Source: Gammaproteobacteria bacterium (GTDB lineage Bacteria; Pseudomonadota; Gammaproteobacteria; JAJDYQ01). From it: a stretch of 64,000 nucleotides of DNA. The stretch spans positions 1,007,992 to 1,071,991 of the forward strand of contig OZ243932.1 in NCBI GenBank assembly GCA_965214035.1. Direction: 5' to 3'. The notes below the pieces were generated by a model. That model was not told the origin of the DNA and searched no databases. It worked only from the letters and a program-made list of their open reading frames with translations. Position numbers and translations under genes: made by a program. This document shows positions 16,669-18,975 of the stretch, one piece after another. The number at the start of each line of letters is the position of its first letter. The first letter of the stretch is position 1.

Positions 16669-18975
16669 TCAGCGCCGCGTCGCTTCAAGAAATCTCTTTA
16701 CATTGCTGTTTTTGATGCGGTCAGATCGGTTCCTTGCCACATGATCAGCCGGCAGCCTTCCATCATTATCCCTGATCCCCGGATCTGCTCCCAATTCCAG
16801 CAGGACCTCAATGGTTTCAGGATTATCATTGGATTGTGCTGCCAGATGCAGAGGTGTTCGTCCATTTTTGTTTCGGGTATTACTGTCTGCGCCGGCCTGC
16901 ATAAGGACACGAATGATTTCAGGATTTTCATTTTCCCTCGCCGCCCAGTGTAGAGGAGTCAATCCGGAATAGCCGCGCACACTGATGTCTGCGCCAGCCC
17001 GTATCAGAAAATGAATGATTTCGGGGTCTTCATTAAGCAGTGCCGCAAAATGCAGAGGTGTCTGTCCATCTTGATTCCGTGCATCGGTATCCGCGCCAGC
17101 TTGTAAAAGAGCTTCAACGACTTTGATACTTTTATAGGCCGCCCGATGCAAGGGGGTATTTCCGTCTTTATCCCTTGCACCGACATCTGCACCTGCCTGC
17201 ACAAGGAGCTGAATCATTTCGGAACTTTGGCTATACGCTGCTGCTTTATGCAGAGGGGTCTCTTCAAGTTTGTCTCGTGCGTTACTGTCGGCGCCACCCT
17301 GCAATAAAATACTGACCTTCTCAGGGCTGTTATAGGCTGCCCGATGCAACGGGGTCTGTCCGTCATTATTCCGTGCATTACTGTCGGCACCGGCATGCAG
17401 CAGGGCCTCGATGACTTCCGGGCTTTCACTCGATGCCACTGCCCGATGCAGGGGGGTGCTGCCAGACCGATCCGGCCTGTTGATGTCTGCGCCGGCCTGT
17501 ACCAATACCCCGATAACTTCGGGGTTACTGTTGTTTTCTGCGGCCCGGAACAAGGGAGTATCTCCGGTACTGTCCATTGCATTGATATCTGCGCCAGCCT
17601 GCATCAGGGCCTCGATGACTTCCGGGCTTTCACTCGATGCCGCTGCCCGATGCAGGGGGGTGCTGCCAGACCGATCCGGCCTGTTGATGTCTGCGCCGGC
17701 CTGTACCAATACCCCGATAACTTCGGGGTTACTGTTGTTTTCTGCAGCCCGAAACAAGGGAGTATCTCCGGTACTGTCCATTGCATTGATATCTGCGCCA
17801 GCCTGCATCAGGGTCCGGACCACTTCGGGACTTTCATTAAATCCTGCGGCCCGGTGCAAAGCCCCCTGCCCGTCTTTATTCCGGGCCTTTATATCGGCAC
17901 CAGCCTGTATCAGGGTTTCGATAATTGCAGCATTCTGATTATATTGAGCGGCCCGATGCAGGAGTGTTTCTCCGTTTTTATCTTGCGCATGGATATCCGA
18001 GCCAGCCTGTATCAGTAAACGGATATCTTCAGGGTTTTCACTGAATCTTGCGGCCCAATACAAAAGCGTCGCCCCGCCTTGTTCATCGCTATCGGCACCG
18101 GCACGCACAAGAGCCTTAATGATTTCCGGGTTCCTGTTATCTTCCGCTGCCAGATACAAGGGAGTCCGCCCACCTTCATCGCGTACATTGGTATTTGCAC
18201 CAGCCTGCACAAGGTCCCGGATAGCCTGTGGATACTGACTATATCGCGCCGCCCAGTGCAAGGGGAGCATTCCGTATTGATCCGGTGCCCTGATATCAGC
18301 GCCAGCCTGTATCAATGGCTGGATAAGCATGGAGTTTCGATAAGCTGCCCAATGTAAAGGGGTCCGTCCATGTTGGTCCCGTTCGTTGATATGGGCACCG
18401 GCACGCAGAAGTGCCTCTGCAATGTCAGAATTTTCATTAAAAATTGCTGCATAGTGCAGAGGGGTTTTTCCGCCTGCATCGCCGGCATTGATGTCAGCAC
18501 CGGCCTGCATCAGGGCCTGGATGATGTCCTGATTCGCACTTTCTGCGGCTGCCCAATGCAAAGCAGTTGAATGATTACCGGCCCGTGTATTGACGTCGGC
18601 ACCGGCCTGTATAAATGCCCGAATGATTTCGGGATTTTTATTGCTGATTACCGCCCTGTGCAGAGGAACCAGTCCATCTATATCCCGCACATTGACAGCG
18701 GCACCGGCCTGTATCAGGGCCCGGATCATCTGCGGGTCTTCGCTGTATTGTGCTGCCTGATGAAGGACAGTCTGCCCGAGTTTATCCTGCGCCTTGAGTT
18801 CGGCGTTGACGGCCAATAGCTGCTGTATCTGTGCCGGTGTTGCAGCAGACCACCACTCCTTGTCAGGCAGTGGTGACTCGGCAGGCTGCGCCTGACCCAG
18901 GCCTGAGCAGGACGCGAACAGCAGGGCCACAATGAAGCCGGTTTTCATACGGCCTTTCCGGAGTCCTGAAATCAA
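16669..18975 (-). CDS. Secreted ankyrin-repeat protein (about 21 ANK repeats)
   Basis: Signal peptide 'MKTGFIVALLFASCSGLGQA'. ANK repeats with 'G.TPLH.AA...' run continuously to the C-terminus. 768 aa. Confidence 0.9.
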   Translation of the reverse strand: MISGLRKGRMKTGFIVALLFASCSGLGQAQPAESPLPDKEWWSAATPAQIQQLLAVNAELKAQDKLGQTVLHQAAQYSEDPQMIRALIQAGAAVNVRDIDGLVPLHRAVISNKNPEIIRAFIQAGADVNTRAGNHSTALHWAAAESANQDIIQALMQAGADINAGDAGGKTPLHYAAIFNENSDIAEALLRAGAHINERDQHGRTPLHWAAYRNSMLIQPLIQAGADIRAPDQYGMLPLHWAARYSQYPQAIRDLVQAGANTNVRDEGGRTPLYLAAEDNRNPEIIKALVRAGADSDEQGGATLLYWAARFSENPEDIRLLIQAGSDIHAQDKNGETLLHRAAQYNQNAAIIETLIQAGADIKARNKDGQGALHRAAGFNESPEVVRTLMQAGADINAMDSTGDTPLFRAAENNSNPEVIGVLVQAGADINRPDRSGSTPLHRAAASSESPEVIEALMQAGADINAMDSTGDTPLFRAAENNSNPEVIGVLVQAGADINRPDRSGSTPLHRAVASSESPEVIEALLHAGADSNARNNDGQTPLHRAAYNSPEKVSILLQGGADSNARDKLEETPLHKAAAYSQSSEMIQLLVQAGADVGARDKDGNTPLHRAAYKSIKVVEALLQAGADTDARNQDGQTPLHFAALLNEDPEIIHFLIRAGADISVRGYSGLTPLHWAARENENPEIIRVLMQAGADSNTRNKNGRTPLHLAAQSNDNPETIEVLLELGADPGIRDNDGRLPADHVARNRSDRIKNSNVKRFLEATRR
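17393..17800. repeat. Near-identical 204-bp tandem duplication inside the ankyrin gene (two-repeat unit duplicated)
   Basis: 17393-17596 and 17597-17800 differ at about 3 positions. The encoded 68-aa block 'INAMDSTGDTPLFRAAENNSNPEVIGVLVQAGADINRPDRSGSTPLHRA.ASSESPEVIEAL' occurs twice in tandem. Confidence 0.85.

Follow-up and report, generated by a model that had tools for sequence, protein, structure and literature searches.

Sponge symbionts reportedly encode ankyrin-repeat (ANK) proteins that carry a signal peptide and consist otherwise of ANK repeats alone, as Nguyen, Liu and Thomas are said to have described in 2014. We analysed a 64-kb stretch of gammaproteobacterial DNA (contig OZ243932.1; hereafter the window, meaning this whole stretch) for a minus-strand gene that specifies an ANK protein, referred to below as the window protein, in which two adjacent 204-bp units are nearly identical. 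Like the window protein, ANKp of the sponge 'Ankyphage', which is encoded in sponge-associated microbial genomes, is an ANK-only protein with an N-terminal signal peptide, and this phage product lowers phagocytosis (bioRxiv 10.1101/608950; on the ANK proteins of sponge symbionts the paper refers to Nguyen et al. 2014, Mol Ecol 23:1635). ANKp is, however, encoded by just 568 nt (bioRxiv 10.1101/608950), whereas the window protein comprises ~21 repeats in 759 aa. Unlike ANKp, it also has a lipobox, suggesting membrane anchoring rather than release, and its gene is chromosomal, beside an Rrf2-family regulator and mrcB.

Other described systems resemble this locus in part. ANK genes of close Wolbachia strains undergo duplication, deletion, and shuffling of whole repeats via short direct repeats within the units (Siozios et al. 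2013, PMC3563639). The ANK proteins of this intracellular alphaproteobacterium are cytoplasmic or linked to a type IV secretion system (T4SS) and vary in repeat number between strains, whereas the window protein combines an unchanged net count with a Sec or lipoprotein signal. Bd3460 of Bdellovibrio is a periplasmic self-protection protein of 23 kDa with a signal peptide and six ANK repeats that inhibits the DD-endopeptidase with which it is paired (PMC4686830). The Dot/Icm ANK effectors of Legionella and Coxiella, in turn, contain additional domains as well as a C-terminal translocation signal, but no Sec signal. They share only generic ANK repeats with the window protein, which bears a Sec-type signal and whose partial NCBIfam matches to them all fall far under the cut-offs (in bits, AnkY 358/600, AnkH 246/600, AnkG 191/500, and AnkX 182/1400), so that it belongs to none of these families.

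We consider it reasonably likely that the gene belongs to a sponge-associated bacterium and that its product is a eukaryote-like ANK protein, probably lipid-anchored, whose protein ligand lies outside the cytoplasm. Comparison with orthologues further revealed that its four central repeats have been rearranged. These orthologues were reached through the product of mrcB, penicillin-binding protein 1B (PBP1B), first by way of a 97% identical protein (P0121) and then through the members of its cluster, which led to six related loci. One of them, L088, stems from an independent assembly and shares 99.65% identity with the window across 15 kb, while L081, L082, L087, and L169 are ~93% identical at the DNA level and represent sister lineages from sponges of the genus Ircinia. 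L082 is cut inside the ANK gene, and the repeat count therefore covers the five loci with a complete gene, that is, the window, L088, L081, L087, and L169.

The encoded protein and its export signal

The maximal open reading frame (ORF; 16669..18975, minus strand) counts 768 aa from a TTG that directly adjoins the stop codon of the Rrf2 gene. Within its first codons, a Shine-Dalgarno-like GGAAAGG at 18959-18953 precedes CCGT and an ATG, and the GGAAAGG-CCGT-ATG arrangement is kept in the window, L088, L081, and L087. Because this arrangement is conserved in the four orthologous loci, the true start is most likely the ATG at 18948 and not the TTG at 18975, which reduces the 768 aa of an earlier note on this DNA to 759; the intervening codons are probably not translated. 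Pfam searches bore out that note's description of ANK repeats from the signal peptide to the C-terminus: Ank_2 scored 705 bits (E 1.8e-217; cut-off 27.3) in 14 stretches and Ank 498 bits in 19, and the matches to Ank and Ank_4 span the whole protein. With ~33-aa tandem units above the gathering score, it is an ankyrin-repeat protein of the Pfam Ank clan. We delimited 20 units, each 32-34 aa long, and one further repeat at the N-terminus, hence ~21 repeats, the 20 units having the consensus xxLxQAGADINARDxxGxTPLHxAAxxNxNPExI. The sole non-ANK Pfam family over its cut-off, GDPD_2 (33.1 bits vs 27), matched 16 residues within an ANK unit, with no individually significant stretch. Two plus-strand ORFs inside the gene, 17344-18018 (224 aa) and 17411-17938 (175 aa), themselves hold the duplication and were set aside as antisense by-products of the repetitive codon pattern that are very unlikely to be genes. 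No second ANK gene was found in the 64-kb window.

Structural modelling supported the ANK solenoid. In a single-sequence AlphaFold2 model with a mean predicted local distance difference test score (pLDDT) of 84.2, 22 helix pairs run unbroken from residue 30 to ~740, and residues 1-25 are disordered (pLDDT <50). The protein is thus predicted to be one long continuous solenoid without any other domain, the stacked helix-turn-helix solenoid of ANK proteins being seen here in the predicted structure. The top Foldseek matches in the PDB were the 24-repeat membrane-binding domains of AnkB and AnkR (4rlv, 8cs9, 5y4d), with E values from 5.8e-36 (4rlv) to 2.5e-31 and query-normalised TM-scores (TMq) of 0.66-0.71. 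These domains share with the window protein a long uninterrupted ANK superhelix, yet sequence identity is just 27-28%, and the window protein has mostly 34-aa repeats with a conserved N-x-N-P-E motif and no spectrin-binding or death domains. It is also exported, whereas AnkB and AnkR are cytoplasmic.

The N-terminus (MKTGFIVALLFASCSGLGQAQP) displays a basic n-region and a hydrophobic core, TGFIVALL(F/L), followed by a lipobox or, alternatively, by a signal peptidase I (SPase I) site, GQA|QP; by manual reading, four orthologues share both. L088, L081, and L087 have the lipobox L-A-S-C, in agreement with the strict pattern ([LVI][ASTVI][GAS]C at the end of a short signal peptide), and the window has F-A-S-C (Cys14 codon at 18909-18907), which lies outside that pattern. 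F-A-S-C fits the broader PROSITE-style definition. On this reading of the N-terminus we lean to a lipoprotein, probably lipid-modified at Cys14. With either site, the signal indicates Sec export to the cell envelope and is no indication of release or of delivery into a host. The term 'secreted' used previously accordingly covers, at most, Sec export with probable lipid anchoring. As read manually, the protein shows the signal peptide and absence of other domains that characterise the eukaryote-like ANK proteins of sponge symbionts. Long ANK arrays with a signal peptide are, besides, common among public metagenome proteins: a crude test of hydrophobicity and charge makes 84 of the 120 top-scoring long ANK matches look exported, and 24 of those 84 contain a lipobox-like motif. 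At the same N-terminus, a 12-nt tandem insertion (GCCGTATGAAAT|GCCGTATAAAA) lies right after the ATGAAA of the ANK gene in the Ircinia lineages (L081:7503-7530 and L087:7504-7531), adding four residues (MKCRIKT vs MKT) and thereby two more positive charges to the n-region.

A four-repeat segment rearranged relative to orthologues

At 17396-17813, Tandem Repeats Finder detected an array of period 204 with 2.0 copies and 98% matches. The copies align best when 17401-17609 is set against 17605-17813 (209 nt), with 3 mismatches, at 17438, 17542, and 17548, which agrees with the ~3 nt noted before, although the register originally chosen gives 5. Other pairs of units in the gene are ~50-65% identical at the DNA level, and near-identity over 204 bp is therefore far beyond chance. 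Each copy comprises two repeats, designated A1 and B'1 in the first copy (coding order) and A2 and B'2 in the second. The only amino-acid difference within the near-identical tract is Ala to Val, in B'2, while the first two residues of A1 and A2 differ (RT vs EA) at the duplication junction.

Alignment with L081 located the segment in which the two alleles part. Positional DNA identity is 88-98%, save for three consecutive 102-nt bins at 56-67%. In the window, W10 and W12 both correspond to unit A of L081 (DNA identity 0.89 and 0.88) and W11 and W13 to its unit B (also 0.89 and 0.88), whereas L081 units X and Y have no window counterpart. The four central slots are hence occupied by A-B'-A-B' in the window and L088 and by A-X-B-Y in both Ircinia lineages, which differ mutually by 83 nt in the ANK gene. 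Both window B' units begin with GGGGTATTGGTACAGGCCGGCGC, a start that shows 2/23 differences from that of X and 7/15 from that of B; being X-like and not B-like, it identifies B' as an X/B fusion. The crossover lies inside an 8-nt run (GCCGGCGC) of the conserved Q-A-G-A-D codons and deleted exactly 102 nt; as the fusion is present in both B' copies, it preceded the duplication. The start of A2, GAGGCCCTG, resembles that of the unit after the duplicated block, and A1 starts with CGGACCCTG; these starts place the duplication junction in the 5-nt run CCCTG. As in Wolbachia, then, the junctions lie in short shared runs. Read in this way, repeat Y must also have been lost in the window lineage, and the lineages would be separated by at least three events (-102, -102, and +204 nt) within one four-repeat segment, with zero net change in length. 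We also considered whether the Val in B'2 is a remnant of repeat Y, which has Val there too. All flanking nucleotides are B-type, so this origin was rejected and a coincidental C-to-T change is the likelier source.

The 204-bp near-identical tandem would have arisen by recombination or slippage at short shared sequences between 102-bp units, with X lost by the X-B fusion, Y lost as well, and the A-B' pair duplicated while total length stayed constant; thereafter, gene conversion probably kept the two copies alike. L088 has the same tandem duplication and the same C/T difference (the Ala-to-Val change in B'2, gene position 1307), which dates the duplication before the window and L088 diverged (by 0.35%) and after the split from the Ircinia lineages. 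The label 'very recent', deduced from three differences, is therefore unsafe, the more so given a hint of gene conversion. In the ANK gene, 10 positions distinguish the window from L088, and 5 of these fall within the 408-nt duplicated zone that makes up 18% of the gene length (binomial p ~0.02 by our own estimate). Two gene positions separated by 204 nt, 1206 and 1410, are both G in L088 and A in the window and both outgroups. This pattern is only suggestive of one mutation that was then copied to the other unit by gene conversion in L088. If such conversion did occur, the low divergence of the copies understates the age of the duplication.

Being 98.5% identical, the two 204-bp copies lend themselves well to unequal recombination, and on that basis one could imagine a contingency-type locus in which this direct repeat makes the repeat count grow and shrink frequently within populations. 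Close Wolbachia strains do differ in ANK repeat number (PMC3563639), and 8 of the 120 best long ANK matches have a near-identical internal repeat. The count is nevertheless the same in 5/5 complete-gene loci, including L088 with its duplication and C/T marker, and that shared marker shows that no collapse and re-expansion has taken place since the window/L088 split. Only the occupants of four slots differ, in conflict with the earlier statement that repeat number is actively changing, and we regard a contingency locus as improbable.

The same comparison bears on the genuineness of the tandem copy. Repeats do trouble assemblers, as is seen in the short-read contig L082, from a metagenome-assembled genome (MAG), which breaks within the ANK gene, and the orthologue proteins come without a precomputed Pfam record, both of which might point to an assembly error or to a pseudogene. 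However, the independent assembly, 0.35% different, contains the same duplication with its internal marker, and the window PBP1B is identical to a protein (P0242) over all 751 residues of the latter, which is recorded on a 2,513,604-bp contig. The reading frame, moreover, is intact in 5/5 complete-gene loci. We also estimated the ratio of nonsynonymous to synonymous divergence (dN/dS) between the window and L081 or L087, leaving out the rearranged segment. The ANK gene yielded 0.20 (L081) and 0.18 (L087), with a synonymous divergence (dS) of 0.175-0.184. Flanking genes, with similar dS, yielded 0.09-0.10 (PBP1B), 0.10-0.11 (GlcD), and 0.33-0.34 (Rrf2). Since its dN/dS lies within the range of the flanking genes at similar dS, these values indicate that the ANK gene is functional, under purifying selection, and vertically inherited with its neighbours. 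Artefact and decay are thereby effectively refuted.

Genomic neighbourhood and sponge-associated relatives

Table 1. Features of the ANK locus, in window positions
Feature	Position	Strand	Remarks
ANK CDS, 759 aa	16669..18948	-	Signal peptide, short Pro-rich tether, N-terminal cap, ~21 repeats (32-34 aa), short basic C-terminal tail
Sec-type signal peptide MKTGFIVALLFASCSGLGQA	18889..18948	-	Manual sequence reading; lipobox F-A-S-C; alternative SPase I site GQA|QP
Upstream extension of the maximal ORF (TTG 18975)	18949..18975	-	Holds the Shine-Dalgarno-like GGAAAGG
First copy (coding order) of the two-repeat unit	17614..17817	-	A1 17817-17716, B'1 17715-17614
Second copy of the two-repeat unit	17410..17613	-	A2 17613-17512, B'2 17511-17410
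Rrf2-family (IscR-like) regulator	18976..19458	-	Pfam Rrf2 E 1.2e-34; 27 nt from its end to the ANK start
Class A penicillin-binding protein 1B (mrcB)	14099-16462	-	Downstream neighbour; context only
TPR lipoprotein	13515-14099	-	194 aa; lipobox VAGC, Pro/Ala-rich linker, C-terminal TPR; start overlaps the PBP1B stop

Two of the ~93% identical loci can be traced to a host. L082 belongs to JAJDSW, the MAG jk18x11bins.22 from the sponge Ircinia campana, and L169 to JAJDYQ, the MAG jk18x34bins.42 from Ircinia vansoesti (Kelly et al. 2022, supplementary table 5, PMC9531527). Both MAGs are assigned to the Gammaproteobacteria, GTDB order GCA-2400775, with ~50% GC, 1.8-1.95 Mb, and ~87% completeness, and belong to a set of Ircinia MAGs enriched in ANK and other eukaryote-like proteins (PMC9531527). 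Genomes of the sister lineages measure ~2.5 Mb. The sister lineages of the ANK gene are thus sponge-associated and part of that enriched set. The host association proposed earlier gains from the origin of these orthologues in I. campana and I. vansoesti; a Legionella-type T4SS effector, in contrast, finds no support in the model scores given above.

The gene order glcDEF - DUF1249 - Rrf2 - ANK - mrcB - TPR lipoprotein - helicase is common to the window, L088, L081, L087, and L169. A more distant relative with an 80% identical PBP1B (L086; its 2.57-Mb contig is probably a circular assembly, to judge from the suffix of the name) is without the ANK gene and has an 80-aa Rrf2 remnant. Only the first 80 Rrf2 codons are present there (L086:9614-9856), 144 nt from mrcB, and a deletion appears to have taken the rest of Rrf2 together with what came after it, presumably the ANK gene. 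Loci L084 and L085, from a relative with a 74% identical PBP1B, have neither Rrf2 nor ANK gene. In these relatives mrcB and the TPR lipoprotein gene are retained without the ANK gene, which is accordingly an accessory, lineage-specific gene that travels with the IscR-like Rrf2 gene.

Rrf2 and ANK are probably co-transcribed, and a promoter-like site was found upstream of Rrf2 at 19522-19493. The regulator scored 162.8 bits with the NCBIfam IscR model, under its cut-off of 207.55. It has a C-x5-C-x6-C motif, with no isc genes adjacent. Among the 80 closest metagenomic Rrf2 loci, each fetched with up to ~6 kb on either side, 53 contain an IscS motif, and the ANK gene may come under Fe-S or redox-responsive control through Rrf2. 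An Rrf2-ANK pair as a widespread module was ruled out, with an ANK gene in 0/80 of the best Rrf2 loci. As for the downstream side, the TPR lipoprotein may be akin to LpoP, the TPR-type PBP1B activator of Pseudomonas.

Neither the ANK protein (as 768 or 759 aa) nor PBP1B nor Rrf2 was retrieved by exact-sequence look-up, and a search with the full-length ANK protein retrieved just generic long ANK arrays at ≤46% identity. The orthologues recognised at the DNA level were not among them, so that absence from the protein database is uninformative on orthology. A scan of GTDB species genomes with PBP1B reached 49% identity at best, hence no close species representative, and a degenerate DNA pattern for the invariant C-terminal tail had no match in JGI metagenome contigs.

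Further features of these loci were recorded in passing. A 7.4-kb segment at 3724-11112 of the window, between the helicase gene and HindIII-like restriction-modification genes, is missing from the otherwise collinear L087 and L088; a 1666-aa ORF within it (5697-10697, minus strand) combines an Mrr_cat_2 nuclease with a ResIII helicase domain, and the segment resembles a defence-type insertion specific to the strain. On the same strand, a 2530-aa ORF with Calx-beta and fibronectin-III-like domains (30962-38554) adjoins a 436-aa autotransporter beta-domain protein (29619-30929), making 29619-38554 a candidate for a further large surface or eukaryote-like protein. Two divergent methionine sulfoxide reductase (PMSR) genes, at 24481-25188 (minus) and 25336-25953 (plus), keep their arrangement in relatives. 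Downstream of the helicase gene, L084:10398-16539 contains two tandem copies of a filamentous-phage-like module (small ORFs and a Phage_CRI/G2P replication protein). Close lineages also vary in the CRISPR-Cas genes that lie downstream of tsaD: type III genes (Cas10/Cmr2, RAMP) at L087:18065-22364 and L169:17957-22256, and a Cas9-like gene at L088:19192-22256.

Proposed role and significance

According to the reading that we favour, the ANK protein would be exported via Sec, probably lipid-modified at Cys14, and tethered to a membrane by the short Pro-rich linker. Its ~21 repeats would fold as one continuous solenoid, with a groove in which another protein is bound, outside the cytoplasm. Judging from the signal-peptide ANK proteins known from sponge symbionts and their phages, this partner would most likely be a host protein of the sponge cell, and the likely benefit escape from phagocytosis or immune recognition.

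A partner within the envelope is a less likely possibility. Here, the solenoid would bind a periplasmic protein of the bacterium itself or of a competitor, as an inhibitor of or immunity protein for a cell-wall enzyme, in the manner of Bd3460, or as a scaffold linked to the cell-wall synthase pair of PBP1B and the TPR lipoprotein. The protein carries just a Sec or lipoprotein signal, and its gene is followed directly, on the same strand, by mrcB and the gene of the TPR lipoprotein. Bd3460, which blocks DD-endopeptidases in the periplasm (PMC4686830), likewise consists of a signal peptide followed by ANK repeats only, is encoded near a peptidoglycan enzyme gene, and acts outside the cytoplasm, as we propose for the window protein. 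Nonetheless, a Bd3460-type inhibitor would be small, have ~6 repeats, and be encoded in a conserved pairing beside the hydrolase that it neutralises, whereas the window protein has ~21 repeats, its neighbour PBP1B is a synthase, and no hydrolase or toxin gene adjoins it. A gap of 206 nt separates the ANK gene from mrcB, and the adjacency is not conserved, given that relatives keep mrcB and the TPR lipoprotein gene without it and that the ANK gene travels with the Rrf2 regulator instead.

Several observations count against a lipid-anchored, host-binding protein and the history outlined for its repeats. The window lipobox has Phe at position -3 and its Cys14 lies near the N-terminus, so that cleavage by SPase I at GQA|QP is possible. 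A Sec or lipoprotein signal targets the periplasm or the membrane, not the interior of a host cell, and the sponge origin is documented only for the ~93% identical sister lineages. Regarding the array, gene conversion relies on one synonymous site pair plus the excess of differences in the duplicated zone, and the order of the three events and their exact mechanism need an outgroup to be fixed.

Under a bolder and rather doubtful reading, the four central repeats would constitute a swappable specificity module within a solenoid whose length is fixed by selection. The A-X-B-Y lineages are those with Ircinia hosts, and the events of -1, -1, and +2 repeats restored exactly 21; a lipid-anchored solenoid that has to span a set distance is one example of such a constraint. 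If true, this would amount to a bacterial, cassette-style retuning of host or partner specificity via intragenic recombination and gene conversion.

The class of exported ANK-only proteins and the turnover of ANK repeats are both already known, and the gene is an ordinary example of them. Its practical value is modest: with its lipobox, its 21 repeats, and two alleles that occur in nature, it is a defined candidate for host-binding tests of the exported ANK proteins of sponge bacteria. Eukaryote-like ANK proteins are, however, among the most consistent genomic markers of sponge symbionts, and few have been examined allele by allele. This locus provides a clean, polarised example of how such an array evolves, by repeat loss, fusion, duplication, and probable gene conversion with no net change in length, and indicates that a near-identical tandem pair alone does not imply a changing repeat count.

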